Source: an uncultured Anaerolineae bacterium (GTDB taxonomy: Bacteria; Chloroflexota; Anaerolineae; Fen-1058). Taken from it: 64,000 nt of DNA. The DNA is taken from assembly GCA_964651475.1 (NCBI GenBank), contig CAZYXV010000019.1:11837-75836 (forward strand), given 5' to 3'. Shown in pieces: positions 20,801 to 40,777 of this stretch; position 1 is the stretch's first letter, and each line of letters starts with the position of its first letter. The position numbers were made by a program, and so were the translations under genes. The notes beneath the pieces are model-generated. The model made no database searches and was not told where the DNA came from. It saw nothing but the letters and a program-made list of their open reading frames with translations.

Positions 20801-23694
20801 TCCACCGGACCAGGCGCACTGAAAGACGATGGCAGGCGATTTTCAGGCTGGCGTGGCGGCTGTATCGTCGTCCGCTGCTGGCAAGCGGGTGGATCGCTTC
20901 CGCCGGCGTTATCGGGCTGGCGCTGGTGCGCAACCTGTGGCTCTTGGGCGGGGGACGTATCCAGCAAACCTGGGCGGCGATTGGCCTGGCGCTGATCACG
21001 GGCCTGTACGCTCTTTCGGCGCGGCTGTTCCGGCAGGCGCGCTTTGTATGGATGGCGGCGGTGCTCGTCTTTGCGCCGTGGACGATCTTGACCAACCTGG
21101 GCTGGTTCGTTTTGCACAAGCCCACCACGCCGGGTTTCGCGCTCAGTTGGGTCGTGCTGGCGTGGGCGCTCTTTTTAGTCGGCCTGCTCGTGCAGCGCGC
21201 CACCCGTCCTTCGGCAAGCTCAGGACACCACCGCATCCACACAGGGGCGTATGCCCTGCCGCTCAGGACCGTGGCGCACGTCTTGCTGCCTCTTTCGCTC
21301 TTGTGGGGCATTGCCGACGTGAACACCAGCCGGATAACGTTCGCCCTGGCGATTGGGTTTTATACGCTGGCGGCCATACTTGATTACGTTGAAAGGGAAC
21401 CGGATCGGGCGGGGCAGGTTGTAAACCGGACGAAATTCCTTTACCCGGCGTTGGGCCTGATTCCCGTGTGGTGCGTTTACGTGTTGCGCTGGCTGCTGCC
21501 TGCGGCGCGCCACGAACATTACGGCCTGATGCTCCTGGTGTTTGGCCCGCTCGGAGTAGCCGCCGGCCAATCCCTCGAACGCTTTATCCTCGCCAGGAAA
21601 TCGAGCCTTCCAAATGTCCGCCAGCTTGCCGGCGGCTATGCCCTGCCGGCTTATCTCACAGGCTATATCTCGCTCATCGTCGGCACGATGCTGGTAGCGC
21701 ACCAGCCAGCGCTCCTGGCGCTGACGCTGCTCTACGATGCGCTGCTCGCGCTGGTTTCCGCCCGCATCTTCAGGCATCCACTATGGGTCTATCCGGCGGT
21801 CGCCCTGACGCCGCTCTCGCTCCTGATCGCGCTGAACCAGGCCGGCGTGGCCGGCAATCGTCATGGGTGGTGGTTGATCGGGCTGGGCGCGGTGTACCTG
21901 GGCCTGACGTGGGCGCTGCGCCGGCTCAAATCAGGCGCGTACAGCACGGCCACGCTGGCAAGCGGCTTTGCGCTGATTGCTTTAGGCTTGCCGCCCTCGA
22001 GCCAGGATAAAGACGGCGCACTGTGGGGCTACGGCGGCGCGGCGCTGCTGTACGCCGTCACCGCGTTTTGGCTGCGCCAGCCCTTGCTGTTGACCCCCGC
22101 CTGCGCGCTGGCCATCGTGCCTTACGCGATCGTGATTCAACGCTCGCCCCTCGCGCCGGACTATTACGGATTGGCGCTGTTTCCCGGCGCAGCGGCGGCG
22201 CTGGCGCTGGGTTGGCGGCTCGACGCCGGCTGGCGAGATTTTCCGTGGGGCCATCCGCCTAAATGGGGATTGGCGCTGGGCGAGCGTTTGCTGAATTGGT
22301 GGGCGCTGCCGCTCTACGCGCTGGGCTTTGGCCTGACAGCGGCCAGCCCCTTGTTCACACACTCCCGCGCAGGTCTAACGGCCCTCAACCTGGCGCTGAT
22401 GATGCCGCTGTTTGGATGGGCTATCTATCGCTTCCGGCTGCGCGGCTGGCTCCTGGCGCTGGCCGCGGCGGGACACCTGGCCGCGCTGTACTTTCTTAAA
22501 GAGTTGGGCTGGTGGCGCTATCCGCCGTATGCCTGGGCCAGATTCTTGCCGGTCACGCTGGCGGCGGCGGGAGCTGGCATGCTCATCGAATGGCGGCGCG
22601 AGGAAGGCTCGCCGCTTCACCCGGCGCGCCTCCTGGCGGGATGGTCGCGCCCGCTGTACGGCCTGGCGCTGCTCGACGTTATCGTGAGCCAACTGGCAAG
22701 CCTGGGCGGCACGAGCGATGGGGCGCTCGTCACCCTGACGCACGCGCTGCTAATCGCCGCGCTGGCCTCGTTTTGGATATCCGGCTCGCTGCCTTTTCTC
22801 AGCACGGCGTTGGGCATTGTAGCATTGCTGCAATGGCTTTTTACCCTGCGCGGCCTAATGGAAGGATTGCCGGTGGCGCTGGCGCAATTGGCGCTGGCGT
22901 ATGGATTGGTCGGCTACGGGTTGGCGTTCGCGCGCAAGCGGCCCGGCGCTGCCAGCCCCCGGCTCTGGATTTGGGAGACGCCCCTGATACAATCGGGCCT
23001 GTGGTTATCTTTTGCCATCCTGGTAATCACAGCCATATTTGGCATTGACCTGGTAGGGTGGACCCTCCGCGCCATGCTTGGTTTTTCTTTCCGAGACATT
23101 GTCGAACTAGAAACCGTGCGAATGATAGTTGGCGTGCTGGCCTTGTTAGGGCTGCTCTACGTGGGCGCGGCCTTTACGTATCGCCGCGTGCGGCTGGGAT
23201 ACGCGGCGATTGGGATGCTGTTGGCCGCCTGGATCACGCACGCCTTTTACGTCCAGCAGTGGGATGGCGCGGCGCACGTGCAGTGGTACGCCGTGCCGGC
23301 GGGACTGTACCTGGCTGGCGTGGCTTTTGTGGAATGGCAGCGCGGCAACAAGACCTTTTCTCGGTGGCTCGATTACGCGGCGCTGGCGTTGATGATGAGC
23401 TCGCTCTTTTGGCAGACGCTGCTCTTTGGCTGGCGCTACGCCCTCATGCTGGGCGCGGAGGGCTTTGCGTCTTTTTGGTGGGGCAGCGCCCGGCGGCTGC
23501 GCCGCTTTCTATACGCCGGCATGCTGGGCGTGGTGCTGGCGACTGTGGCGCAATTGATCAACTCGCTGCAATCCATCAACCAATGGATCGTCTTTGGGCT
23601 GATTGGACTGCTGGCGATTGCGGCCGCCGTGCTGATCGAGCGCAAGCTGGAAGAAATCAAGGCGTGGCTAGAAGTGTTGGAGACGTGGGAGTGA
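17815..23694 (+). CDS. Giant (1959 aa) polytopic integral membrane protein with N-terminal zinc ribbon, helical/Pro-rich linker and roughly 50 predicted TM helices; function unknown
   Basis: MHCPACDQPDFDPTAPCPQCQF zinc ribbon; PAPEPQPAPPEPEPAPPAPPPAPPAAPP linker; remainder dominated by hydrophobic Leu/Ala/Trp-rich helices. Confidence 0.6.
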   Translation: MHCPACDQPDFDPTAPCPQCQFSGDPALVEELAHVDWVLDQIGGWPVFNEADRQSIRQHYAARQRELEINLGLRLPPFTDEQAAAAWPELVQREALLQYLAEWLEEGSLQPPAAQTLVEQVKRQIKDLLEQLEGRARPALHQTDFGRLDLIRFLLEAVDHLSQKDGFATPEAHALVRSRLEAQQEHLEINLGLRPAPAPEPQPAPPEPEPAPPAPPPAPPAAPPLPFRDRLLRTLLSVRTLQALLFLGIFLTFSAALSFVAWGWRDFSAPLRVAIPTGFTALFFAMGWYVRTRTPLYRSGIALSAIASLLIPIDFYTLYANLNISADYGPSFWLLTSLACLAAYIVTTLIIQNPLFGYLVGVAAGSTVLALIQVAHQALGFSLDWRTAGLSALALCFTVLSARRSSPRLPRVFADPLRALALLAMGVLMPLSFGWRYIGRSAYDTLHYAMTINWWVGGFIFGWGAVYHRSRSLGILAAMTLPIATYMAQAALFDWREINPAWHAFGWACLVPLYFVVGHRLLARKEDTVLYGHGRTATGWGAALLIAAALWSLTEFSSGAAAACSHAVLAGSVVLATRLWRRPAYLYGASLLSFSALTFALTELNLNLSQLTPGWAALAIAHMLIAIRLRDASAQGQAGAPSFFATPLVTAAYALAALAIAQALAPYDGDSVAYVLGNWLGLAAWGAWLAHTGQPGFAASPPSRSTFFSRVLYDFRRSRFHWFTALPLPVWLWVLFSNRGPLDSSFPIALAVLAWGLGALSYRLERVESAYGLPWYLMELLVSIAAPLAAWLVAPEGFTPALCLLAVGLLYFADAAANRQTIELLPGGLVTAWGLERLLDKLRVSFDATTLILALLVAAYILGALWIERKKSPVFTHRFLIPLYLSAHLISLAVLWRIYVHPINDVLRDIAWTDEMRAWGAAGQIVLGIVYGLYAWGIYKEHWAHAAAWLLMGGGGFVAIAYSQGRGSSAAKGALAVIAFILAERALHWLRGRPLLHRTRRTERRWQAIFRLAWRLYRRPLLASGWIASAGVIGLALVRNLWLLGGGRIQQTWAAIGLALITGLYALSARLFRQARFVWMAAVLVFAPWTILTNLGWFVLHKPTTPGFALSWVVLAWALFLVGLLVQRATRPSASSGHHRIHTGAYALPLRTVAHVLLPLSLLWGIADVNTSRITFALAIGFYTLAAILDYVEREPDRAGQVVNRTKFLYPALGLIPVWCVYVLRWLLPAARHEHYGLMLLVFGPLGVAAGQSLERFILARKSSLPNVRQLAGGYALPAYLTGYISLIVGTMLVAHQPALLALTLLYDALLALVSARIFRHPLWVYPAVALTPLSLLIALNQAGVAGNRHGWWLIGLGAVYLGLTWALRRLKSGAYSTATLASGFALIALGLPPSSQDKDGALWGYGGAALLYAVTAFWLRQPLLLTPACALAIVPYAIVIQRSPLAPDYYGLALFPGAAAALALGWRLDAGWRDFPWGHPPKWGLALGERLLNWWALPLYALGFGLTAASPLFTHSRAGLTALNLALMMPLFGWAIYRFRLRGWLLALAAAGHLAALYFLKELGWWRYPPYAWARFLPVTLAAAGAGMLIEWRREEGSPLHPARLLAGWSRPLYGLALLDVIVSQLASLGGTSDGALVTLTHALLIAALASFWISGSLPFLSTALGIVALLQWLFTLRGLMEGLPVALAQLALAYGLVGYGLAFARKRPGAASPRLWIWETPLIQSGLWLSFAILVITAIFGIDLVGWTLRAMLGFSFRDIVELETVRMIVGVLALLGLLYVGAAFTYRRVRLGYAAIGMLLAAWITHAFYVQQWDGAAHVQWYAVPAGLYLAGVAFVEWQRGNKTFSRWLDYAALALMMSSLFWQTLLFGWRYALMLGAEGFASFWWGSARRLRRFLYAGMLGVVLATVAQLINSLQSINQWIVFGLIGLLAIAAAVLIERKLEEIKAWLEVLETWE

Positions 23695-25574: not shown

Positions 25575-27326
25575 TTACCTTCCCGGAAGCTCTGAGCTTC
25601 CGGGAAGGTTTGCGCCGATTTCGCTCTGCAAGATGCAGCGCAATATGCGGCGCAAGATGGCCACGGCGCAGGCATACGAAGCATCCATCCCAAAATACAA
25701 CAGGCTCTTGGAAAGCAGCTCTTGCCGGCGGCTGTAGGGCGTATCCGACGCATAGTGCAAAAAGCCAATGTCGTAGCGCGCCAGCAAAAACAGGTTGACG
25801 ATCTCGTTGACGGGATGGCGCTTGGGCGCCAGGTCCTCGTACACCGCGCTGAGATAAGGCCCGGCCTCCATCTCGATATCGGTATAGCCCTCGCTATAGA
25901 ACACGTGCATAAACTCGCGGTTTTGCAGGAACGTGCCGCGCACGGTGACGGCCTTTTGATTGTCGAACACAGTGCCGTAGCGCAAATACGGCGCGACGTC
26001 GTCGGCGGCAAAGCAATTGCGGAACAGGTACGTGTTTTGCGAGTGCTGGTCGTACGCCACGTTGGGAATCATCACGTCGCCCACGCGCCCGTTGAGCGTG
26101 GCTGCCTTGCCCATCACGTACACCCCCGCCAGCTCCGAGGCAAAAGAAGCCACCTCGGTGAGAATGTTGTACGCCGCCGCGCCCAACGGATAATCAATGT
26201 TGACAATCACGGCGCGGCTGTCTTGCAGGCGCTCTAGGCCGGGCATGTGCAAGCGCGCGTCAAAGCGGGCCGGGTCGAGCCGGTTCAACTCGATCACCTG
26301 GGCATCCACATCCAGGTACGATTGCGCGCCGGCGTACCACACGCCGTGCTCGCGCTCAAACTCCAGGCAGGCGCGTAGTTCGTCCTGGCGGCCGGGCCGG
26401 CGCAAGTGCTGGCGCAGCAAGTAATAGAGCAGGTTATCCAGGCGGCCCGGCGCGCCTTCGCTCTGCGCCGCACTGACCTCGGCGCGCAGGTTTTCGGGGT
26501 CGTGCTCGTCCAGCGCGGCGATCAGATCGTCCTGCCGCTGGCGAGCGTATCCCACCAGCAAATTCACCAGGCTGTGAGGGTTGCTGGAAACAAAATACAC
26601 AGGCCGTTCGCACACGTCCACGCCGGGCGCCTGATCCAGCACGGCGTCCCACCAGCCGCGCGTGGCCTTGCGGTAATCGTTGGCCGAGCCGGCCAGCAGG
26701 CGCACCGCCATACGCTTGGGCGCGCGGGCAATGGCGCGCAAGGTGTCCCACAACGCCTCTTTCCACAGCGCCGCCAGCCGCGCAAAATCGCGCTCAGAAA
26801 GCCCCAACTCGTTTCTCACCAGCACGTGATCCTCGGCAGTGAGCGCGGCCTTTTCCAGGGTGGCCCTGGCCTGAGAATTGACCAGGCGCGTGTGCAGCTT
26901 GTTCCACTCGATTTCAAACGTGACCAGTTGCGGAATCAGATCGTCAATATCCGACACGCTGGCAATGTACGCCGCCAGCCGGTCTTGCCCATCAAAGAAC
27001 ATCCGGCGGCGGCGGGCCGGCGAGGCCGCCGCTTGCCACTGTTCCACGTCGGCGTAACCGCGCCGTGCAAACACCTCGCGCGATTGCCCCAGCAGCACCA
27101 GCCGCGTTTGAGCCAGGCAAGCCGGCAAACGCTGCACAACATAGATGAACGCGCCAACGTCCGGCTCGGGTTCGTCCGCCCCGGCGTGCAAGCTGGAATT
27201 CATCGAGCGGTGCGTTTCTTCCAGGCTGCGCACCTGTACCTCGCCGCTGGAGCGCAGCAGCGAATAGTAAGTGCGGATATACAGGTCAATCGAATCGCTG
27301 GTTGGCGAAGGCACGCGACGGTCCAT
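25575..27326 (-). CDS. Hypothetical protein with C-terminal nucleoside-phosphorylase-like (PNP/UDP family) domain
   Basis: C-terminal ...GYTDIEMEAGPYLSAVYE resembles the (V/I)EME(S/A)AA motif of the PNP_UDP_1 family; N-terminal ~350 aa has no recognised motif. Confidence 0.35.
   Translation of the reverse strand: MDRRVPSPTSDSIDLYIRTYYSLLRSSGEVQVRSLEETHRSMNSSLHAGADEPEPDVGAFIYVVQRLPACLAQTRLVLLGQSREVFARRGYADVEQWQAAASPARRRRMFFDGQDRLAAYIASVSDIDDLIPQLVTFEIEWNKLHTRLVNSQARATLEKAALTAEDHVLVRNELGLSERDFARLAALWKEALWDTLRAIARAPKRMAVRLLAGSANDYRKATRGWWDAVLDQAPGVDVCERPVYFVSSNPHSLVNLLVGYARQRQDDLIAALDEHDPENLRAEVSAAQSEGAPGRLDNLLYYLLRQHLRRPGRQDELRACLEFEREHGVWYAGAQSYLDVDAQVIELNRLDPARFDARLHMPGLERLQDSRAVIVNIDYPLGAAAYNILTEVASFASELAGVYVMGKAATLNGRVGDVMIPNVAYDQHSQNTYLFRNCFAADDVAPYLRYGTVFDNQKAVTVRGTFLQNREFMHVFYSEGYTDIEMEAGPYLSAVYEDLAPKRHPVNEIVNLFLLARYDIGFLHYASDTPYSRRQELLSKSLLYFGMDASYACAVAILRRILRCILQSEIGANLPGSSELPGR
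25578..25608. repeat. 31-bp palindrome CCTTCCCGGAAGCTC-T-GAGCTTCCGGGAAGG (copy 2); likely bidirectional terminator between convergent genes
   Basis: Differs from the copy at 17707 by one symmetric pair (T/C, A/G) plus the centre base; lies between stop codons at 25569(+) and 25575(-). Confidence 0.6.
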
Positions 27327-30238: not shown

Positions 30239-31756
30239 GTGACACGAGAGCGCAAAACTCGATTGAATCCTAAAGATGTCCCGCCATTAGGGCTGTCTGC
30301 GTTCGAAAGCCTGCGTGCTGAAGACGAACCCTGGCTAGCCGAACGTGCTTACATTTTGCCGCCAGAGTTCGAACTTATGGCCGGGGCGCGCTCGATCATA
30401 GTCTATGGGCAGCCTGGTTCCGGGAAAACAGCGTTGCGCCGTGCGCTGGAATATCGCGCCCTGTCCTTGATTCCAGCTCGGCTAATCGTGCATTGGCGAC
30501 CGACCCTGCCTGCCGATGCGCTCACCACCGGGACCCTGGCTGCCCGGACGCAACTTGCACAAGCTATGGATGCGTGTGCAATTGCATTACTCAAACATCT
30601 GGCTGATTCCCCTGCGGCTTACGGCCAGGCGCCTGACTGGGCGCAGCAAACATTGACGTGGTTTATTCACCGTTATAGCAATGATTTGCCAGGACAAATT
30701 ACTTTTTTATCGGATAGAGCCAGAGGATCAAGTCAAGCCCTCGTTCGCCAGTTGGCGACACGCCCTAATCGCGAGATTTTGGCAGCGGACGCTCCGCTGG
30801 ATGCTGTTGTGGCACGTTTGACAGAGGCGCTGGGGACAATCGGGCTTGAAGGGATATGGGTGATGGCCGATAGCGTCGAAGGTTTGACCGAAATCGAGCC
30901 GGAGCGCTTAGCGTCCGCGCTAACCGCTTTTCTGTCCTGTCTGGCTTATTTCGAGCAATCGCCGCTTTTTTACAAGCTAACCTTGCCCATCGCGCTTCAA
31001 TCGCGCCTGAACACTTCGAGCAGCATCGTTCGCGGGCGCGTCTTTCTTCATCAGCTTGCATGGACAGCCGATCACCTGAAGCAAATTGTGGAACGACGAT
31101 TGGCTTTGGTAACAGGCAAAGATGATTTCAAACTTGGCGATATTTATTCTCCTTCCCCCTCCAAGCGCCAATCCGCACAAATAACAAAACGCCCCAAACG
31201 GCCCAAGATTAACCCGGTTCAGGCCTGGTTAGCCGGCTGCGGCGGCGCTGTGCCGCGTGGTTGGTTAAACTATGCCAGCCCACTTGCATCAGCCTGCCTT
31301 CAACTCAGGGCGCAACAACAAATTCGTTCCCTCACCTGCCAGGAATGGTTAGAGGCGCGCGGTCGCGTGCCATTGATGCTTTCGCTTGATCAACAAACAG
31401 GCCTGGTGCATATTGGCTGGCGTACAATTGACCGGCTTTCCCCTCTCGAACAGTCTGTGTTGCAATACCTGATGGCTAACCATGGCCGCATCTGCACCAA
31501 AGAAGAGCTGTACGAAAATGCGTACCTGGCCAGTGAGCAGGCCGGCCTGAAAGCGAGTCAGCTCTCAGAAACACAGCCCAAACTGCCGGAACGACCAAGC
31601 CTCAAGAGCAAAGGCGGTTATAATAGCGTAATTGATACAGTGCTATGGCGATTGCGCGAGGCCATCGAGCCGGATATGGACAATCCCGTTTTCCTGCTAA
31701 CCAGCAAGGGGCAAGGCGTTGTGTTGCATCCGCAGCCCTTTGTAAAGGACGTGTGA
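30239..31756 (+). CDS. P-loop NTPase fused to a C-terminal OmpR/PhoB-type winged-helix DNA-binding domain (putative ATP-dependent transcriptional regulator)
   Basis: Walker A GQPGSGKTA, Walker B IWVMADSVEG; C-term ...SVLQYLMANHGRICTKEELYENAY...VIDTVLWRLREAIEPDMDNPVFLLTSKGQGVVL matches the Trans_reg_C pattern; GTG start. Confidence 0.55.
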   Translation: MTRERKTRLNPKDVPPLGLSAFESLRAEDEPWLAERAYILPPEFELMAGARSIIVYGQPGSGKTALRRALEYRALSLIPARLIVHWRPTLPADALTTGTLAARTQLAQAMDACAIALLKHLADSPAAYGQAPDWAQQTLTWFIHRYSNDLPGQITFLSDRARGSSQALVRQLATRPNREILAADAPLDAVVARLTEALGTIGLEGIWVMADSVEGLTEIEPERLASALTAFLSCLAYFEQSPLFYKLTLPIALQSRLNTSSSIVRGRVFLHQLAWTADHLKQIVERRLALVTGKDDFKLGDIYSPSPSKRQSAQITKRPKRPKINPVQAWLAGCGGAVPRGWLNYASPLASACLQLRAQQQIRSLTCQEWLEARGRVPLMLSLDQQTGLVHIGWRTIDRLSPLEQSVLQYLMANHGRICTKEELYENAYLASEQAGLKASQLSETQPKLPERPSLKSKGGYNSVIDTVLWRLREAIEPDMDNPVFLLTSKGQGVVLHPQPFVKDV

Positions 31757-31918: not shown

Positions 31919-33136
31919 ATGTTGGCTGGCAAGGAGCAGTATGAACAGGAACTGGAACCCCTTTTTTATACGTGGCTGAAAACAGTTGGGCTTGACTTTA
32001 ACCCCTTTGCCATTCTGGATGCCGGCCAGGATCCCGATATTCCTGCTTATCTCGTTGGTCACACCGACTTTGAAAAACTGTGGGGTGATTGGCCGGCGTT
32101 TATATTTGCGCCGGCTGGCGGCGGCAAGACGGCTTTTCGCGTCCGGCTGGCGCGCGCTTGCCGGGTGGGTGAAGATGGCCGGCGGGTGTTCCCCATTGTT
32201 TATCATCGCTTGCCAGCGCCCGGCGAAATTGCCGAGGAGCATGGGCAGGCCATTCACCTAAAAAACATTGCCCGGCAAGCCGCCCAGGAACTCTTGTTTT
32301 GGCTGGCGTATCACCCCCTAAAATTGACCGAATTAGATAATGCCGCACTTGCCGCCATACGCCTCGTTTTCGACGCACATCTACCTTCACAACTCGATGA
32401 TTACCTGGATCGCCTGCGCTACTTTGGCGACCTGTCTCCCCTGGCGCACGAATTTGACCGCACGACCAGCTATCTCATCAACCCTCCCGGCCCTCAAGAT
32501 GTGCGACTATTTTGCGAACGCATGGCCCAGAGCCTGCCGAAAACTGCGTCCGGATTATTCCACGGTCAACAATTTGAACATCTAATCAACCTTCTCCTGA
32601 ATCAATTACATTTCGACGCGATTTATCTTTTGATTGACGGAGTAGATGCCTACCCGGAAACCGCTTCTGATTCCAAAGCCGCCTTGCCCATCCTCGATTG
32701 GCTGCTACGTCAAACACCGCAGTGGGCCGGCCAACACATCTTTGCCAAGTTTTTCTTGCCCGCCGAACTTGAAAATCCACTTCAACAACAAATGCCCACC
32801 CTATTGACAACGCCTTCAAAAGTTGCTATTATAGAATGGTCAGTTGCAACGTTAGTAGAGGTTATCCAAAGGCGGTTGAGCGTCGCCAGCCAGGGAATGT
32901 ATGATAGCCTGGATGCTCTCAGCAGCCCAGGTTTGCGCGGCGCAGAAAAGAAACTGGCGCGCACCGTCTGGCCGCGCGTCCCGCGCCAGATGTTAATCTT
33001 GACCGAACGATTGCTGGTCGAACACGTCCAACGCGCCGGCCCGCACGGCAAGCTTGAACCTCAAGATTTGGAACTGGCTTGCAACTGGTACGCCGGACAA
33101 AAAAAAGCCACCTTGCCGCTCGCAAGCTCTCCCTAG
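31919..33136 (+). CDS. P-loop NTPase, paralog of the upstream gene but without a DNA-binding domain
   Basis: Walker A APAGGGKTA, Walker B IYLLIDGVDA; N-terminal ...GLDFNPFAILDAGQD; collinear similarity to 30239..31756 through the NTPase core. Confidence 0.45.
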   Translation: MLAGKEQYEQELEPLFYTWLKTVGLDFNPFAILDAGQDPDIPAYLVGHTDFEKLWGDWPAFIFAPAGGGKTAFRVRLARACRVGEDGRRVFPIVYHRLPAPGEIAEEHGQAIHLKNIARQAAQELLFWLAYHPLKLTELDNAALAAIRLVFDAHLPSQLDDYLDRLRYFGDLSPLAHEFDRTTSYLINPPGPQDVRLFCERMAQSLPKTASGLFHGQQFEHLINLLLNQLHFDAIYLLIDGVDAYPETASDSKAALPILDWLLRQTPQWAGQHIFAKFFLPAELENPLQQQMPTLLTTPSKVAIIEWSVATLVEVIQRRLSVASQGMYDSLDALSSPGLRGAEKKLARTVWPRVPRQMLILTERLLVEHVQRAGPHGKLEPQDLELACNWYAGQKKATLPLASSP

Positions 33137-33297: not shown

Positions 33298-34725
33298 ATG
33301 ACCATTCAATCTGATTGGCTCTTTTACACCCGTGACAAGTTTGTAAACCGCACCAACGAAATAACATTAGTGACTGAAAAAGCGCAGAGGCTAACGGCCG
33401 GCCTCCCTGTAGACAAGCGCCTGGTGGTTTTCCGTGGCGCATGCCGATCGGGCAAGAGTTGGCTATTGCGCGAGATTGAGCGCCAGCTAAAAGAGCATTT
33501 GCCAACTATTCCAGTGATTTATCTGGACATGGTGCAGGTGAGTATTGAGGCGTTCCAGGTTGCTTCAAGAAACCCATCAAGATATATAGACCAGGCAAGC
33601 TTGCACCAAATAGTCGCGACCAGTTTTGATACAAGTGAACTATTCGATCTTTGCCATAGGTTGGGCGTAGAACATGAAGATCTGCACGAAAATGATAAAG
33701 TTTGGGGGTTGATCAATTACCTTGATCGCCGTGACCGCCTTACCGAGTTAGTAAGGGTGTGCTATCAATTGAGGCCCAATATCCTTGGATGGAATGCGTT
33801 TGAAGAGATATCAAAGGCCTCTGACGTCATGCAAGTCATCATTTGGCAGGTGGGAGAGCTTGTTGGCTTTCAGACTTACAAGGGCGCGAAATGGGGCGCG
33901 CTCATTGACGCTTTTCTCGGCAGTATACGCAAGGCAGGGGGTTTAATCCTTTTGCTTGATCATCTGGATGAGTTGTCACGTAATGCACAGGAGACCTTGG
34001 AAAATCGCTTCCTATCACCACTCGCTGTGCTGCCGGGAACCTTAATTATCTCTGGCAAACGCCTTACAGAACGCCCCTGGATAATGCCAGAGCTGCACCT
34101 CAAATCCAGAGAATATGATCTGCACAGCTTTGATTTGCCCACCACACAGGAGCAACTCCAAAAACAGATTCCTGGGCGTGAGCTAGCCGCCGACGAGGTC
34201 CAGCCATTGAGCGCCGGCTATCCTGGGTTAAATTATATTTTGGGCATGAATTGGGGCAACCGAGCCAGAGCGATAGAGCAATGTGCTCAGATCTTGATCG
34301 GAAACGAGGTTGAAGATTTGCGCCCCTACCTGGAAGCTCTGTGCGTGTTGCGCTCGTTCCACGAATCAGCTATGCCGGCCATGTTCACTGCGCGTCTGAA
34401 TGGGCCATTAACTGAATATAGTGTCCCCATTTGTCGAGATATTCGGGAAAGATTGACTCAAGCAAGGTTAGCCAGGTGGGACAAAGCAAAAGGCAATTTT
34501 AACGTGGATCCGGCGGTCAAAGCGGCGCTTGAAAACACTTTGCGCGAGAACAATTTTGCCTTGTGGATCGTATTACATTGCGCCGCTCATTGCTTGTACA
34601 ACAATTGGGCGACTCGCTACTCTCATAACTCAGAGTGGCAGATTGAAGCAGCTTATCACGCTGATTGTTTGCGAGCAGCAGGTTACAATCCCAATCAGTG
34701 CGACTGTCAGGAGGAAAAATCATGA
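33298..34725 (+). CDS. STAND/AAA_16-like P-loop NTPase
   Basis: RBS GGAGAGGAATAAGAAC-ATG; FVNRTNEI...VVFRGACRSGKSWLLREI (the F-x-x-R...GxxGxGKS pattern of STAND N-termini), Walker B LILLLDHLDEL. Confidence 0.5.
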   Translation: MTIQSDWLFYTRDKFVNRTNEITLVTEKAQRLTAGLPVDKRLVVFRGACRSGKSWLLREIERQLKEHLPTIPVIYLDMVQVSIEAFQVASRNPSRYIDQASLHQIVATSFDTSELFDLCHRLGVEHEDLHENDKVWGLINYLDRRDRLTELVRVCYQLRPNILGWNAFEEISKASDVMQVIIWQVGELVGFQTYKGAKWGALIDAFLGSIRKAGGLILLLDHLDELSRNAQETLENRFLSPLAVLPGTLIISGKRLTERPWIMPELHLKSREYDLHSFDLPTTQEQLQKQIPGRELAADEVQPLSAGYPGLNYILGMNWGNRARAIEQCAQILIGNEVEDLRPYLEALCVLRSFHESAMPAMFTARLNGPLTEYSVPICRDIRERLTQARLARWDKAKGNFNVDPAVKAALENTLRENNFALWIVLHCAAHCLYNNWATRYSHNSEWQIEAAYHADCLRAAGYNPNQCDCQEEKS

Positions 34726-37700
34726 GCCCACAGCTTGCTATAGAATACCTCGGCGCGCGCGCCACGCCAGAACTGGTCAACCGGAAACAAATTCTAAATA
34801 CAATCCAGATGACACTGGATAGTGCCGAGTGCCGGGTCGTCTACATCACTGGCAAAGGAGGCATGGGCAAGACACGCCTGCTGCGTGACATCCTGCAACG
34901 ATGCGCGCCTGGAGGCGAATGGTTCCGCCCGGGACTTCTTTCAATGTGGGATGTGCTCGACCTTTATCATACCCACACCCACGTTCAAGACGGATTCGCT
35001 CAAAGCATCTTGGATGCCTTGAGCGAAAGAGCGGCGCAAACCCACGACGCGCAGTCGCTCAAAAAATGTAGGGTTGCATTTGGCAAGTATCAAGAGGCCT
35101 ACAATCATTTTGAGAAAAGTAAATATCACCTGGCCGGTATGCTCAAAGAATTGTCAGAATTGCGTGACCAGGTGGCGCAAGAATTTGTCAACGCCCTCAA
35201 TGCCCTGGCGCAGTCTTATCACCTTGTCCTGGCAATTGACACAGCCGAAAAACTTTTCTACGAAACAGACGAGATCCAACAAGCCATCGAGTTAGGTGAA
35301 GAAGGCATTGCTGTCCTCTCCTGGCTATTGAAGAAGGTGCTGCCAGTTTTACGTAATGCGACGATACTTGTGGCTGGCCGCCCTGACCCCGAGAGCGGGC
35401 ACAAGCGACTGCGGAAGGATCTAAAAGCCGCCTTGCGCGACTGCTTGATTGAGCGCAACCTGGATAGATTTGAACTAGAGGATACCCAGGACTATTTCCG
35501 AGCCGCGGCCAGGGCTGTCGAACAAGAAGGCCAAGCTGAAGAGGCAAAACGCATTGAGGGTATTCCGCCTGAAACACAAACCGTCATCTGGCGTTATACA
35601 GGCGGGCGGCCGATTCGGCTCGCGCTGATGATTGACTATCTGCTCGAATCTCAGGATCTGCTCCCGCAAGTCAAAGACCCACCCGAAATCGCCTACAAAC
35701 GAACGGATGGTGAATTGGCCACCATTCAACAGGATATTGAACAAGACCTGGTGCGCTTTTGGGAAGAAACACGGCGAGCGACCAATCTGGCTATTATCAC
35801 GTTGGCGTGGGCGCGCAAGGGAATGGACGCTGAATTGCTGGCGCGCGCAGCCGATCTCAAACGAGACGAAATGTGGGATATTGAAAAAGCGCAGCAACTC
35901 TTGGATGCAATCAGGGGGCTCTCTTTTGTCAAAACCCGTTCCTTTGACGGGCGCTTTTTTCTGCACGACGAAATGTACGATTTGCTCGACCGTTACGTTT
36001 TGGCGCGCGTCCCAGAAATCGAACGTGAACGGGTGCACGCAGCCATTCTTAAATATTATGAAGAGCGAGTAGGCCGGGCCAGAAAAAGGGTGTTTGATTT
36101 AGGGCAGCCCCATCTTGAAAAAATGCCAGAGTGGGAGAGAGTGCCCTTGGGCGTGCCCAAACCACCCGACGATCCCAGGGCGTTGGCTGCTGCCATGACC
36201 GAACTGTACAATCTAATGGCCGAAGAGGTCCATTATCGCCTGCGCCACAACTCGCAATATGGCTATCAGGTTTACTATCATTATGCCCAAGAGGCTCACT
36301 GGGCTAGCGAAGACACTCTGGACCTGCTGCTACGTAGTGAGATACTGGATTTTCTAACTATCCTTGGAGCCAAAGAACGTATTGAGGGGTTGCGCTACAG
36401 CGAACCACTCATTGATACTGGATTACGTTGGGTGACTCGCAACACTCGGCGCAGAGCATATGCAACAGCAGTGAGCATCGCCGAACGGTTGCGGACAAAA
36501 TGCGAGAGCATTTTGGACGATGTGGGAGCATTGGCATGGGCGCGGCTGGATTCACAGCAAGGCGAAGCCATGACTTATCAGGGTATTGAACTGGAACGCG
36601 CCAAGGAGCTTTTGACATCTGCCGTGAGCAATCTGCAGACATTGGGAGCTTTATCAGGTTTTGAAGGATGGCAGCGCGATGTGTTGCTGGCAGAGGCTTT
36701 TAACAATTTGGGGTATTTGTACCGCACCCGGGGGCAGTTTCAAGATGCGATTGATACCTATGAAAAAGCCATCCCGCTCTGGCGCAAACTGGGTGAACGG
36801 GAGCCAGCCACCGAAAAGAAAGGTGTCTCGGACGCTCAGCACGCCAACACGCTCAACAACCTAGCCTGGGCCTGCGCCGAAGTGGGCGAATTCAGCAAAG
36901 CTGAGCGATATTGTCTCGATGCATTGCACAAGCGCCAACAACTTGGGCCGCTGGCCCCAGTTGCCTTTAGCTTGAACACACTGGGACTCATTTTGATGCG
37001 CGACGACAAGCCGCACCGGGCCAAAGTACATTGTGAGCGCGCACTGGGTATCTTTCGCGACCTGGGGCAACCGCGCGGCGTTGGGTTGGCGTGTATTGCG
37101 TTGGCCGAAGTGTATCGCCGCATGAGCGATGTGCCTGATCTGTACGCTCCTGAAGAAAGCGCCGACTTGTTGAAACAGGCCGCCCGCCACGCCCAGGAGG
37201 CCGTTGAGATTTTTGATAAATCGGTGCCCGAACGCCCCAGAAAAATTGAGGCGCTGCTTGAACTGGGCTGCGTGTATCGCCAATGGGCTTGGTTGCGGCC
37301 TAGCTACACATCAGTGACCGATAATGCTCCCCACGTCCTGGCCCAGAACAGCGAAGAGGCGCTAAGACAAGCCATCCAGGTAGCTGGAGAGGATTTGTTG
37401 CATCGCGGTGTGGATGCCCATGTTAACCTGGCTTGGCTATATTACTATGTAAGAGACAATGAAAAAGCGCGCGCTGAAGCGGAGACCGTCATCCAACGCA
37501 TTGACCAACGTTATCATATCACATCGAATGGCTGGCCAGATCAATCGCTCCCCCAGGCATTTTTCTGGGTGCAACTTGGCAAGGCGTGCTTGCTGCTTGG
37601 GCAAATCGCTTTCCGAGAATTTCAGCGCAGCCAGGGGCCGGCGCATTTGGAAAAAGCCGCCAGATATTATACTCTTGCATTAGCATATAACGAATTATTT

Positions 37701-37901
37701 GCTCCTGATTTTCGAGACGTTCGCCGAGGGCAGGATCGCATTTACGATCGCTTGAAGGGGCTAAATACCCAAGAATTTCAGGCTGTCTATCAAGGTATCC
37801 GGCAGGCTATTTATGAATATTCTCTACCCACGCCAACCCGTATGCAGCAATTTCTCAAAGACTTTGGATTACCCGAAATGCCCGGCGAAGAGGTCGGATG
37901 A
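34722..37901 (+). CDS. NB-ARC-type STAND NTPase with C-terminal TPR repeat array (signal-transduction ATPase; no recognisable effector domain)
   Basis: ATGA start/stop overlap with the upstream gene; VVYITGKGGMGKTRLLRDIL Walker A, HLVLAIDTAEKL Walker B; multiple TPR-like repeats (NNLGYLYRTRGQFQDAIDTYEKAI, LNNLAWACAEVGEFSKAERYCLDAL, ...). Confidence 0.6.
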   Translation: MSPQLAIEYLGARATPELVNRKQILNTIQMTLDSAECRVVYITGKGGMGKTRLLRDILQRCAPGGEWFRPGLLSMWDVLDLYHTHTHVQDGFAQSILDALSERAAQTHDAQSLKKCRVAFGKYQEAYNHFEKSKYHLAGMLKELSELRDQVAQEFVNALNALAQSYHLVLAIDTAEKLFYETDEIQQAIELGEEGIAVLSWLLKKVLPVLRNATILVAGRPDPESGHKRLRKDLKAALRDCLIERNLDRFELEDTQDYFRAAARAVEQEGQAEEAKRIEGIPPETQTVIWRYTGGRPIRLALMIDYLLESQDLLPQVKDPPEIAYKRTDGELATIQQDIEQDLVRFWEETRRATNLAIITLAWARKGMDAELLARAADLKRDEMWDIEKAQQLLDAIRGLSFVKTRSFDGRFFLHDEMYDLLDRYVLARVPEIERERVHAAILKYYEERVGRARKRVFDLGQPHLEKMPEWERVPLGVPKPPDDPRALAAAMTELYNLMAEEVHYRLRHNSQYGYQVYYHYAQEAHWASEDTLDLLLRSEILDFLTILGAKERIEGLRYSEPLIDTGLRWVTRNTRRRAYATAVSIAERLRTKCESILDDVGALAWARLDSQQGEAMTYQGIELERAKELLTSAVSNLQTLGALSGFEGWQRDVLLAEAFNNLGYLYRTRGQFQDAIDTYEKAIPLWRKLGEREPATEKKGVSDAQHANTLNNLAWACAEVGEFSKAERYCLDALHKRQQLGPLAPVAFSLNTLGLILMRDDKPHRAKVHCERALGIFRDLGQPRGVGLACIALAEVYRRMSDVPDLYAPEESADLLKQAARHAQEAVEIFDKSVPERPRKIEALLELGCVYRQWAWLRPSYTSVTDNAPHVLAQNSEEALRQAIQVAGEDLLHRGVDAHVNLAWLYYYVRDNEKARAEAETVIQRIDQRYHITSNGWPDQSLPQAFFWVQLGKACLLLGQIAFREFQRSQGPAHLEKAARYYTLALAYNELFAPDFRDVRRGQDRIYDRLKGLNTQEFQAVYQGIRQAIYEYSLPTPTRMQQFLKDFGLPEMPGEEVG

Positions 37902-37902
37902 A

Positions 37903-38376
37903 ATGGTCTTTTCTCTTGCCCCCGGACATCGCGTTGACCTTGTTGCCGCTATTAACACTGTGTGCAGCGAGAGCCCGTATATGGCAACCACACGCTTTGA
38001 GCCTACGCCGGCCTGGATGCATGCGCTAGATACACCTGATTGTCAATGTCATTGTATCCTGACGATTCAAGACACCGGTCGTATTATTGGCTGGTGTCGA
38101 ATGTTTCCGGCCAATCGCAATGAGGCGCTGTCGCAGGTGGAACTGGGCGTCGGCTTGCTTGCGCCGTACCGCTTGTGTGGGTTGGGGACATTGCTTGTCA
38201 GACAAGCGTTAGGCTGGGCCAGTCAAACCGGTTACGAGACGGCCATACTGCAAGTCCATCCAGATAATGCTGTAGCGCGTCATGTATTTGAACGTTGTGG
38301 GTTTGAATACGATGGCATGGTAGGTGGGCTGATGACGATGATTCGTCACCTGCGCCATGAGGAGCAATATTTGTGA
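37903..38376 (+). CDS. GNAT-family N-acetyltransferase
   Basis: Acetyl-CoA-binding motif region LCGLGTLLVRQALGWA; ATG 2 nt after the NB-ARC gene stop; stop overlaps the GTG of the next gene. Confidence 0.55.
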   Translation: MVFSLAPGHRVDLVAAINTVCSESPYMATTRFEPTPAWMHALDTPDCQCHCILTIQDTGRIIGWCRMFPANRNEALSQVELGVGLLAPYRLCGLGTLLVRQALGWASQTGYETAILQVHPDNAVARHVFERCGFEYDGMVGGLMTMIRHLRHEEQYL

Positions 38377-39845
38377 ACAGCTTGACAGAACAAGTTCCAC
38401 GAGTACTATGGGGTTTAGCTGGCGAGTGGGTAGAGCAAGATTGTGCATGCGCTGAAAACATACCGCACCTGTGGCGAATGCCGCCCGGCATCTCCAGCGA
38501 AACGGATTGCGCCTGCGCCGAACCGCTTTTGTCGCCCGCCCCCCCCACTTCATTAATGGCAACTGCCTGGCGCATTGCACCGGAGATCTATCGCGCCCCA
38601 TTGCCAGACATGCACGAACTAGTCTTTGCTTCTACCGGTCAGGCTGGCCTGATCATTCTTAACCAACCCGCCCGCGCTATCCTGAATGCTTACCGCCAAC
38701 CTCACACTCTAACCAACGACACAGCCCGCCAATTGGCACCACTTGGGTTACTCGTTACAACCTATCACCCTCAGTCCCCAGTCCCCAATCCCCAATCCAC
38801 CCTCACCGCCTGGCTACATATTACCAACGCCTGTAACCTAAACTGTGATTACTGCTACGTAAAAAAATCAAGCACGGCAATGACCCAAGAGGTAGGCTGC
38901 GCTGCCATTGACGCTGTCATCCGTTCAGCGCAGGTCAATGGCTACCAGGCTATCAAGCTCAAGTACGCCGGCGGCGAACCCACGCTGCATCCAGCGTTGG
39001 TCAATCGCCTGCACAACTATGCCGTTGATCGAGCCAACCACGCCAAGCTGAAATTGCGCGAAACGCTGCTGTCCAACGGCGTAGCAGTGACCGACGAATT
39101 GCTCGCCTGGCTGCGCGACGAGAACATGCGCGTAATGATCTCAATAGATGGGCTGGGCCAGGCGCACGACAAACAGCGCCATTTTGCCGATGGGCGCGGC
39201 ACAGCGTCGTTGGTATGCAATACTATTGAGCGCGCGCTGCGGTTGGGGCTAAAACCCTATCTATCCATCACCATCAGCGCAGATAACGCGCACGGGCTAT
39301 CCTCAACAGTTGCTTTTGCATTGGAACGCGGTGTGCCTTTTAATCTCAATTTTGTCCGGGCGGCTGGAGGCATTACAAACTCGCGTAAAATCATTGCCGG
39401 CGTGCGCGCGGCGTTTGAGGTAATAGAGAACAACCTGCCGCCTTATCCGCTGACCGGCATCCTCGACCGCGCCAATTTTGCCGCGCCGCACCCCTATACC
39501 TGTGGCGCCGGGCGCGATTACCTGGTGATTGACCCGGCCGGCAAAGTGGCGCGCTGCCAAATGGAACTTGAGCAGGCTGTGACTGATGTCTGGGCTGATA
39601 ATCCACTGCTTGCTGTGCGCGCTGCGCCAACTGGCTTTCAGGCAGTAACCGTAGATGAAAAAGAAAACTGCCGCGCTTGCCTGTGGCGCTATGCTTGCGG
39701 CGGGGGTTGCCCGCTTTTGACGCACCAGGCCACCGGTCACAATCAAGCCCCATCACCCTATTGCGAGGTGTACCAGGCGCTCTATCCTGATCTCTTGCGC
39801 CTGGAAGGATTGCGGCTGCTCAAGTGGGGAAAGCAGGCAGCATAA
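38373..39845 (+). CDS. Radical SAM / SPASM-domain enzyme (peptide-modifying maturase-like) with ~150-aa N-terminal extension containing two DCACAE motifs
   Basis: CNLNCDYCY (CxxxCxxC radical-SAM cluster motif); C-terminal CRACLWRYACGGGCP (SPASM auxiliary cluster Cys); N-term ...EQDCACAENIP...ETDCACAEPLL. Confidence 0.8.
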   Translation: MNSLTEQVPRVLWGLAGEWVEQDCACAENIPHLWRMPPGISSETDCACAEPLLSPAPPTSLMATAWRIAPEIYRAPLPDMHELVFASTGQAGLIILNQPARAILNAYRQPHTLTNDTARQLAPLGLLVTTYHPQSPVPNPQSTLTAWLHITNACNLNCDYCYVKKSSTAMTQEVGCAAIDAVIRSAQVNGYQAIKLKYAGGEPTLHPALVNRLHNYAVDRANHAKLKLRETLLSNGVAVTDELLAWLRDENMRVMISIDGLGQAHDKQRHFADGRGTASLVCNTIERALRLGLKPYLSITISADNAHGLSSTVAFALERGVPFNLNFVRAAGGITNSRKIIAGVRAAFEVIENNLPPYPLTGILDRANFAAPHPYTCGAGRDYLVIDPAGKVARCQMELEQAVTDVWADNPLLAVRAAPTGFQAVTVDEKENCRACLWRYACGGGCPLLTHQATGHNQAPSPYCEVYQALYPDLLRLEGLRLLKWGKQAA

Positions 39846-39867
39846 CAGCATCAACTCCGGCTCTAAA

Positions 39868-39904
39868 CGAGGGAGAAGGTTACAAGCCTTCTCCCTCGTT
39901 TTTT
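39868..39904 (+). terminator. Rho-independent terminator after the radical SAM gene
   Basis: ACGAGGGAGAAGG-ttacaag-CCTTCTCCCTCGT followed by TTTTTT. Confidence 0.7.
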
Positions 39905-40258: not shown

Positions 40259-40777
40259 ATGTCCAACAACTCTTTGCCCTGCTGCGTTGTCTTGATAGAC
40301 GTCAAAAACATTTCGCCCAACATAATAGGTGGGCTGATGCGGCAGTTGAAGTCGAGATACACCATTACTCAAGCCATTGGCTTTGCCGATTTTGGCCAGC
40401 CAGAGATTTCTAACACCAAAGCAGCGCTACGGCGGCTGGGTATCACGCTCCGCCACGTCCCGAGTCTGCAATCTGGGCGCTTTCGTAAAAGCCTGGTGGA
40501 TCAGACGTTAATGATTGAAATGATGATGATCCACGCTCACTGTCGCAATCAAATTGATGCTTACGTGCTCGTTTCCGGCGATGGGCATTTTGTGCCGATG
40601 GTGCAGGCGCTGCGTAGAGATGGCAAGCGTGTGATTGTAGCCGCGCCGCGACAATCGTCCAGCCGTGCACTACGCAGGGTGGCCAGTCAGTTTTTTACAG
40701 TGCGGATGCACGCGCGCAAGTCATCGGCCTCAACTACACTGCCTGGAATCGCACCGAGAACAGAGAGGCCGCAATGA
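40259..40777 (+). CDS. NYN-domain (LabA/PIN-like nuclease fold) protein
   Basis: DAYVLVSGDGHFVPMV matches the conserved NYN hh-SGDGDF-xPL motif; RBS GAGGGGAG before the ATG. Confidence 0.6.
   Translation: MSNNSLPCCVVLIDVKNISPNIIGGLMRQLKSRYTITQAIGFADFGQPEISNTKAALRRLGITLRHVPSLQSGRFRKSLVDQTLMIEMMMIHAHCRNQIDAYVLVSGDGHFVPMVQALRRDGKRVIVAAPRQSSSRALRRVASQFFTVRMHARKSSASTTLPGIAPRTERPQ

Follow-up and report, generated by a model that had tools for sequence, protein, structure and literature searches.

PapB (freyrasin) and QhpD are radical S-adenosylmethionine (SAM)/SPASM enzymes that form thioethers between Cys and Asp or Glu, with six Cys-Asp bridges in freyrasin, while NxxcB links Cys23 of the peptide NxxcA to the C-beta of Asn20, i.e. 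an acceptor at position i and a Cys at i+3 (PMC8326336). Fusions of a modifying enzyme to its core peptide are known among other peptides that ribosomes synthesise and that are modified after translation (RiPPs), namely the borosins (OphMA-type) and the plant BURP-domain cyclases, for which split relatives exist (PMC7878506; bioRxiv 10.1101/2021.12.24.474128; PMC10107690). At the level of whole systems, Kaur et al. (2020) described radical SAM/SPASM enzymes and FxSxx peptides beside signal transduction ATPases with numerous domains (STAND) bearing tetratricopeptide repeats (TPRs), in nucleoside triphosphate (NTP)-dependent conflict systems (PMC7159879). The locus analysed here lies in a 64,000-nt stretch of DNA (the window) from an uncultured Anaerolineae bacterium of the Chloroflexota (GCA_964651475.1, contig CAZYXV010000019.1, positions 11,837 to 75,836), where the last gene of an operon of P-loop NTPases encodes a radical SAM/SPASM enzyme with a repeated D-C-A-C-A-E motif at its N-terminus. 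The first ~60 residues of this enzyme are probably a ribosomal precursor peptide fused to its own maturase, and, as related bacteria have a separate gene for such a peptide just upstream, the enzyme most likely modifies its own tail.

The window enzyme shares with PapB and QhpD the full seven-Cys SPASM and a substrate motif with Cys and an adjacent Asp or Glu, often repeated, but its putative substrate is fused to the enzyme and the acidic residue precedes the Cys (i,i+3) instead of following it as C-x3-D. CteB (PDB 5WGG/5WHY), the SCIFF thioether maturase, has the same layout of RiPP recognition element (RRE), radical SAM core and SPASM region and was the best solved-structure match, but identity is only ~20%, its substrate CteA is a separate peptide, and the window protein has ~60 extra residues before its RRE-like domain. 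The E-x-D-C-A-C motif of the tail holds two interleaved acceptor-x-x-Cys units comparable to that of NxxcA, although the resemblance is at motif level only and the window acceptors would be Asp or Glu. Like borosins and BURP cyclases, the family combines a modifying enzyme and a putative (repeated) core peptide in one polypeptide and occurs in fused and split versions, but folds and chemistry are unrelated (a SAM methyltransferase and a copper-dependent BURP domain, respectively). The FxSxx-COOH system is the nearest systems-level precedent: in both, a peptide-modifying radical SAM/SPASM enzyme is coupled in the genome to TPR-bearing STAND NTPases, the hosts are filamentous or multicellular bacteria, and effector-associated domain (EAD) adaptors occur, but the window peptide is fused to the enzyme and Cys-based. 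The FxsB model scored 61 bits on the window enzyme (cutoff 370), and no FxSxx peptide, zincin peptidase or vWA-MoxR components were found in the window operon.

The repeat tail and its conservation

The enzyme belongs to the radical SAM superfamily according to Pfam (Radical_SAM, PF04055; 56.8 bits, gathering cutoff 29.5). As the preliminary description had recognised, it combines a CxxxCxxC core with a SPASM region, and all ten cluster Cys are present and invariant in an alignment of 103 homologues. The seven Cys of the SPASM region follow the pattern C-x9-15-G-x4-C ... C-x2-C-x5-C-x3-C ... C that defines two auxiliary [4Fe-4S] clusters, so two such clusters are implied here, and the region aligns with the SPASM region of CteB. 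The Pfam SPASM model gave no report for the window protein, but did so for its relative P0270.

The duplicated D-C-A-C-A-E motif reported earlier was confirmed, with both copies within the first 50 residues (Table 1). Their spacing had been given as 24 residues, which is the commonest period in homologues; the window copies start 22 residues apart and are separated by 16 residues. Chance origin of the repeat could be excluded, since only 0.011 repeated hexapeptides are expected in a protein of such composition, any repeated hexapeptide was found in 199 of 20,000 shuffles (1%), and the motif recurs in essentially every homologue. Recent duplication of the motif at the DNA level was ruled out as well, as only 22 of the 42 nt around the two copies are identical and the changes inside the motif are exclusively synonymous, which indicates that the repeat is maintained at the protein level.

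Among 34 aligned N-termini, E21, D23, C24, A25, C26 and D45 to C48 were invariant, P9 and L12 nearly so; the RRE-like domain that follows had four invariant positions only, the tail motif being at least equally conserved. In module 2, C46 and C48 were invariant across the 103 homologues, with D45 and A47 conserved in at least 90% of them. The best 120 homologues (44-66% identity, mostly ~500 aa, from Chloroflexota metagenome-assembled genomes) kept the tail in frame, with one strict [DN]C[AGT]C copy in 29 proteins, two in 76 and three in 10, and four DCAC-like copies could be seen by eye in P0101 and P0112. Six motif-less homologues include fragments and late start calls. Two of these were checked (P0118 and P0024), and both proved to be late gene-start calls with the modules in frame upstream. 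The logo of 194 modules reads P(-14)-x-[IV]-L-W ... [ED]-x-A-E(-2)-x-D(0)-C-A-C-[APS], with P(-14) in 128 modules, L(-11) in 117, W(-10) in 97, E(-2) in 173, D in 192, the first C in 194, A in 193 and the second C in 194; modules are ~22-24 aa long with variable flanks. Overall, an extension related to that of the window was present in the homologues and its Cys residues were invariant, with the motif in frame in more than 100 of them, D, C, A and C near-invariant, and the copy number variable.

A large and diverse family emerged from an exhaustive search covering 1.84 billion representatives, with 574 at E < 1e-30; among the 147 best that had a recognisable core, 118 carried a CxC in the N-terminal region. 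Tail variants among the representatives included QCDCAC, (CD)nCAC, CDAC and the single-Cys forms DCAP/DCYIPP. Hosts include Chloroflexus, Roseiflexus, Caldilineaceae, Anaerolineae, Nostoc, actinobacteria and Ca. Vecturithrix. Three short forms (L024, L032 and L033) have no RRE-like domain and carry a CDC tail directly before the catalytic core, as expected if tethering replaces leader recognition. The protein P0137 (589 aa, NCBI, on a 2.4-kb contig) bears about fifteen 8-aa repeats of the [AV]QCS type (xQCSx), with one Cys each, before the RRE-like domain, an extreme case of repeat expansion. In P0164 (1620 aa, Logan assembly), a TPR protein is naturally fused ahead of the tail (...GGGGSDCACSS...), the RRE-like domain and the radical SAM core; the tail being internal there, a free N-terminus is not required.

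Separate peptides in split relatives and the RRE-like domain

The preliminary description had noted the absence of a conventional precursor gene, and indeed no separate Cys-rich small open reading frame (ORF) was found on the + strand upstream of the radical SAM gene, nor any other candidate precursor in the window operon. A 28-aa ORF between genes A and B in one related locus (L001) was considered and discarded, having no counterpart in the window. The separate precursor typical of SPASM maturases is thus missing from the window but present in eight loci of a sister clade, here called split. The enzymes of this clade at loci L026 and L027 are tail-less and share 32-38% of their residues with that of the window; their E-values were 5e-73 to 3e-77, while the next radical SAM families reached E 2e-34 or weaker. 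The L026 enzyme family is mostly from Patescibacteria, and 86 of its 120 listed members have no Cys in the first 60 residues. A fused QCDCAC tail also occurs inside the split clade (P0371 and P0386).

The split clade was sampled at L026, L027 and seven further loci, six of the seven having an upstream peptide. In eight of the nine loci, an ORF of 35-57 aa ends 0-51 nt before the radical SAM start, and in seven of these eight peptides the C-terminal end carries one, two or three [DN]C[AD]C cores, whereas L027 has QCDAC. The small ORFs of L026 (MKLSDAQVITSETIADVEEIQITQLNITTKKINQGSKLYCQDDCACENNN) and L027 (MNFKNAQIINDKKIKADKKILYGQCDACGNDNNLE) lie directly upstream of the enzyme gene and have a good Shine-Dalgarno sequence, and the upstream ORFs of the clade share the leader A-[KQ]-[IV]-I-T-x-E. 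Their endings include ...SGQDCACSLI in L086, SNCAC... in L092, SSDCACDAYDK in L096, QGDCAC...ECDC in L091, MCDCAC plus QDCAC in L090 (..MCDCACTD..SQDCACDFE), and three DCAC cores in the 57-aa peptide of L089 (...QGDCACED...HQDCACSI..GDCACHA). L088 has a different Cys-rich peptide, and no such peptide was found within reach of the enzyme gene in L087. In seven of the eight split loci, [DN]C[AD]C was confined to the 150 nt upstream of the radical SAM gene; in the control, 124 unrelated radical SAM loci whose 1.12 Mb were translated in six frames, it occurred 12 times (0.011 per kb). Neither the window tail nor five of the standalone peptides matched any NCBIfam model. The split cassettes occur without NTPases and are located among mobile or toxin-antitoxin genes. 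A peptide that has its own leader-plus-core gene beside the enzyme in one clade, and is attached to the N-terminus of the enzyme in the other, is most simply explained as the substrate of that enzyme.

PapB was the best NCBIfam match for both clades, followed by the nif11 and SCIFF maturases, DynA and QhpD. The window enzyme scored 133 bits for PapB (NF047865; cutoff 340), 99 for QhpD (TIGR03906; 453), 108 for SCIFF (TIGR03974; 425) and 81 for anSME (TIGR03942; 349), and the split-clade enzyme P0270 scored 165 bits for PapB and 121 for QhpD.

The N-terminal extension noted earlier as ~150 aa long is present (153 aa) and consists of three parts, the repeat tail (residues 1 to ~60), an RRE-like domain (62-130) and a linker (131-142). 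Likewise, the Pro/Gln-rich HPQSPVPNPQS exists (residues 132-142), not directly after the motifs as stated but ~80 residues later, beyond the folded domain, and is only a variable linker. The AlphaFold2 (AF2) model of the full-length protein, built with the 103 homologues, had a pLDDT of 88 and a pTM of 0.90, with the pLDDT falling to 72 in the linker. Its best PDB matches were CteB and anSME, CteB being a thioether-forming maturase with an N-terminal RRE, and the window profile aligned to the N-terminal region of CteB from CteB residue 26. The folded domain was reproduced when the isolated N-terminus (residues 1-145) was modelled alone. A beta-strand was predicted at residues 11-13 in the full-length model and at 11-15 (VLWGL) in the isolated one, where the RRE-like sheet is the only partner available to it. 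Foldseek searches with the isolated N-terminus placed TigE on top (probability 1.0, rmsd 2.8 Å over 87 columns, E 0.05), with ThcOx also among the best matches (E 0.05-0.18 for the two together) and TruD and LynD at ranks 15-18 (probability ~0.2, E 2.2-2.6), all four of which we take to be RiPP enzymes bearing RREs. Pfam gave weak Cys_rich_CWC matches (E 0.046) in 3 of the 34 isolated N-termini, and the split relative P0270 had a weak PqqD match (E 4e-4). A confidently predicted domain thus follows the tail, and it is called RRE-like on structural grounds alone, as no PqqD profile match accompanied it.

Proposed fused substrate and alternative explanations

The suggestion that the tail is a fused substrate, already raised in the preliminary description, finds good support in genome comparison, namely in the in-frame tail with variable copy number, the RRE-like fold, and the standalone motif peptide in seven of the nine sister-clade loci. 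Each module of ~22-24 aa starts with a hydrophobic element resembling a leader, P-x-[IV]-L-W, which is followed ~10 residues later by the core, A-E-x-D-C-A-C. In the mechanism proposed, the RRE-like domain (residues 62-130) would bind the leader-like element as an added beta-strand, which would place the core in the radical SAM active site, where the 5'-deoxyadenosyl radical would take a side-chain hydrogen from the neighbouring Asp or Glu; the Cys thiolate, held by a SPASM auxiliary cluster, would then couple to this residue and give one or two small thioether rings per module. One or two rings are proposed because E-x-D-C-A-C contains the acceptor-x-x-Cys spacing of NxxcA twice, once as E(i)...C(i+3) and once as D(i)...C(i+3). 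Modification could proceed in cis or between protomers. The motif and its conservation, the modular repeat, the relation between split and fused forms, the RRE-like fold and the operon are observations, whereas we infer that the tail is modified at all, and likewise the type of bond, action in cis or in trans, and any link to the NTPases.

Several results weigh against a fused substrate modified in this way. All curated maturase families scored far below their cutoffs, so that their chemistry cannot be transferred with confidence and we infer thioether formation by analogy. The Foldseek E-values for the RRE-like fold are weak (0.05-2.6), no Pfam PqqD/RRE match (PF05402) was found in the window protein or the 34 N-termini, and AF2 leaves the cores (residues 25-53) disordered, with a pLDDT of only ~65 for the docked strand. 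The operon contains no protease or exporter, and a released RiPP product is therefore not indicated. The acceptor-x-x-Cys scheme does not accommodate QCDAC, the single-Cys DCAP/DCYIPP variants or the repeats of P0137 (xQCSx), and the acidic-Cys motif at the C-terminus of the neighbouring NTPase C could instead mean a shared binding or metal motif.

The tail has also to be part of the protein in the first place. One public gene call (P0001, 455 aa) begins at M36 and would lose module 1, several homologues are annotated from later start codons, and a promoter-like match lies just inside the ORF (TTGACA-16-TACTAT, 10/12, at 38382-38409 on the + strand; a consensus match only), which, if used, would favour the M36 start and keep module 2 alone. 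Were M36 or M62 the true start, the N-terminal region would not be translated with the enzyme and the motifs would be a by-product of upstream sequence. We consider this very improbable, as the frame is open with its amino acids conserved in more than 100 homologues, both modules contain invariant residues and differ in their motif copies by synonymous changes only, and both 'short' homologues checked have the modules in frame upstream. The GTG at 38373 is a credible start: GAGGAG lies 8 nt 5' of it, the GNAT and radical SAM genes overlap by 4 nt (GTGA, the stop of one and the start of the other), and homologues conserve module 1 in the same frame. The 490-aa form is also that of another public gene call (P0390). 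If translated, the tail might serve as an accessory metal-, Fe-S- or redox-active element for the enzyme's clusters, with its Cys-x-Cys pairs and flanking Asp/Glu supplying ligands or forming a dithiol relay for electrons or sulfur, and would then not be a substrate. E-x-D-C-x-C does offer a dense set of potential ligands, the (CD)n-CAC variants place all Cys on one strand face, Ala separates the two Cys in 193 of the 194 modules, and the tail is disordered and remains on the enzyme in an operon without a protease. A fixed site, however, would not vary from one to three strict copies (up to four by eye) or to some fifteen single-Cys repeats as in P0137; each module has only two Cys and its own leader-like element at fixed spacing, and in the sister clade a gene of its own, directly upstream, encodes the motif as leader plus core, which is how precursors are usually arranged. 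To judge from these sequences, a metal site would explain the split peptides and the copy-number variation less well than a fused substrate, and it appears quite unlikely.

The tail may alternatively be a docking or adaptor motif that tethers the radical SAM effector to the STAND/TPR NTPases, perhaps by pairing with the acidic-Cys tail of protein C (through a disulfide, a metal bridge or TPR binding), the target of the enzyme being different. TPRs commonly bind short linear peptides. In 22 loci of the family, the gene directly upstream of that for the radical SAM enzyme is a large D-like STAND/TPR ORF, P0164 joins a TPR protein to the tail and the enzyme, protein C contains EAD7, an effector-recruiting adaptor domain, and endings of the form ...G-[YF]-x-P-x-x-C... 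occur in 11 of 17 protein C homologues as well as in protein C of the window. The split cassettes, in contrast, have peptide and enzyme without NTPases, the RRE-less forms hold the tail next to the catalytic core, and the invariance of D-C-A-C would be unusual for a pure docking motif. Docking seems, on the same sequence comparisons, to account less well than a fused substrate for the split peptides and the variable copy number, and we hold it to be rather unlikely, although it is compatible with a fused substrate, as the modified tail could be what docks.

Within the limits of our search, the literature contained no description of the DCAC enzyme family and no case of a radical SAM maturase fused in nature to its precursor. 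The window protein, if its tail is modified, would to our knowledge be the first instance of such a fusion, and a radical SAM counterpart of the borosins and BURP cyclases. With enzyme and substrate on a single chain, leader recognition and thioether chemistry could be studied, and engineering attempted, in an unusually simple setting. The DCAC peptides would form an uncurated family of at least 150 clusters at 50% identity, with split (Patescibacteria) and fused (Chloroflexota, cyanobacteria, actinobacteria) forms.

The NTPase operon and neighbouring genes

The radical SAM gene closes a tight operon, in which it is preceded by genes for four Walker-A proteins (A to D) and a GNAT acetyltransferase (Table 1). 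The order A-B-C-D-radical SAM recurs in Chloroflexota loci, and the radical SAM gene also comes last in four-NTPase (P-loop/STAND) operons of Nostoc and actinobacteria. The ATG of gene D overlaps the stop of gene C (ATGA). EAD7 was detected in protein C with 46.4 bits (cutoff 32), and no second EAD7 copy was found in the window. The operon thus combines a STAND/AAA NTPase core with an EAD adaptor, as in NTP-dependent conflict systems. PADLOC gave no system-specific match, only generic pVip matches to the radical SAM core and a generic TPR match. The consensus terminator scan listed no terminator; the hairpin at the end of the operon was found by folding.

Table 1. Features of the radical SAM/SPASM enzyme, its gene and its operon in the window.
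Feature	Position	Strand	Basis or remark
Protein A: AAA/ORC-Cdc6-like NTPase, with a winged-helix DNA-binding domain of the OmpR type (Trans_reg_C) at the C-terminus	30239..31756	+	
Protein B: P-loop NTPase, Walker A APAGGGKT, conserved in operon	31919..33136	+	
Protein C: P-loop NTPase with inserted EAD7 domain and C-terminal tail ...GYNPNQCDCQEEKS	33298..34725	+	Pfam EAD7
Protein D: STAND-type P-loop NTPase (AAA_16/NACHT-like) with C-terminal TPRs	34722..37901	+	Pfam TPR_12, AAA_16
GNAT acetyltransferase, probable start ATG 37903	37903..38376	+	Pfam Acetyltransf_1, 54 bits
Radical SAM/SPASM enzyme gene, 490 aa, with N-terminal repeat tail	38373..39845	+	ORF list
Tail module 1, aa 9-28, PRVLWGLAGEWVEQDCACAE: leader-like P-x-V-L-W, then core E-x-D-C-A-C	38397..38456	+	194-module logo
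DCACAE copy 1, aa 23-28	38439..38456	+	
Tail module 2, aa 31-50, PHLWRMPPGISSETDCACAE	38463..38522	+	homologue alignments
DCACAE copy 2, aa 45-50	38505..38522	+	differs from copy 1 by 3 synonymous and no non-synonymous changes
RRE-like domain, aa 62-130, with helices and four to five beta-strands	38556..38762	+	AF2 pLDDT 84-96
Pro/Gln-rich linker of variable sequence, aa 131-142, YHPQSPVPNPQS, joining the RRE-like domain to the radical SAM core	38763..38798	+	not conserved in alignments
Radical SAM cluster motif C154-x3-C158-x2-C161 (CxxxCxxC)	38832..38855	+	invariant, 103 homologues
SPASM region, seven Cys: C377, C395, C433-x2-C436-x5-C442-x3-C446, C464	39501..39764	+	invariant, 103 homologues
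Terminator-like hairpin plus U-run, operon end	39865..39904	+	RNA fold -31.4 kcal/mol, z = -6.45

By analogy with the FxSxx-COOH peptide, FxsB and their TPR-NTPase, the modified tail, or the enzyme carrying it, is probably a ligand, signal or effector of the NTPase system. The C-terminus of protein C (34675-34722, + strand) ends in ...AAGYNPNQCDCQEEKS, and homologues with the shared ending have, for example, SCNCQEEK, VCDCTEGK, DDCAHLP, KDCPSP or DNCPEG; a CxC occurs as QCDC in the window and as SCNC and VCDC in homologues. Resembling the tail cores and the single-Cys DC-x-P variants, this ending may be a second substrate or a partner motif. A more specific proposal, which we put forward as a speculation with little chance of being right in full, is that the crosslinked state of the enzyme's own tail is the signal read by the adjacent STAND/TPR NTPases, which resemble nucleotide-binding leucine-rich repeat (NLR) proteins, with the protein C tail maybe a second substrate; the tail would then be a built-in switch coupling SAM, Fe-S/redox status or infection to NTPase oligomerisation, with transcriptional output via protein A. 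Such a self-modified signal would represent a new signalling logic for bacterial NLR-like systems. What peptide-modifying enzymes do within NLR-like conflict or signalling systems is a question that the FxSxx-COOH systems did not answer, and it could be tested through the conserved association with multi-NTPase STAND operons of filamentous bacteria.

The GNAT gene was not treated as a core component, as none but the closest subclade (the window, L001, L003, L005 and L028) has it upstream of the radical SAM gene. The GNAT proteins contain a conserved P-[DG]-C-x-C-H stretch, DTPDCQCHC in the window (38029-38055, + strand), EPGCACH in L001 and YPDCPCH in L028. In the split clade, a GNAT gene (3858-4406, + strand) overlaps the 3' end of the radical SAM gene of L089. 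An ancestral partnership was rejected, since this protein shows no specific relationship to the GNAT of the window (E 0.17) and the window-type gene is restricted to the closest subclade.

Two systems of the family lie in tandem on one 209-kb contig of GCA_964575455.1 (L004/L005). In the first, the place of D and the GNAT is taken by NACHT-HEAT and AAA_35 NTPases together with a CHAP plus Ricin-lectin protein, the latter directly upstream of the radical SAM gene. Elsewhere in the window, a gene for an NYN-domain protein, a predicted RNase, lies beyond the operon terminator (40259-40777, + strand), a 1959-aa ORF without a Pfam match occupies 17815-23694 (+ strand), and a full-length DUF6909 protein (732 bits) is encoded at 25575-27326 (- strand).

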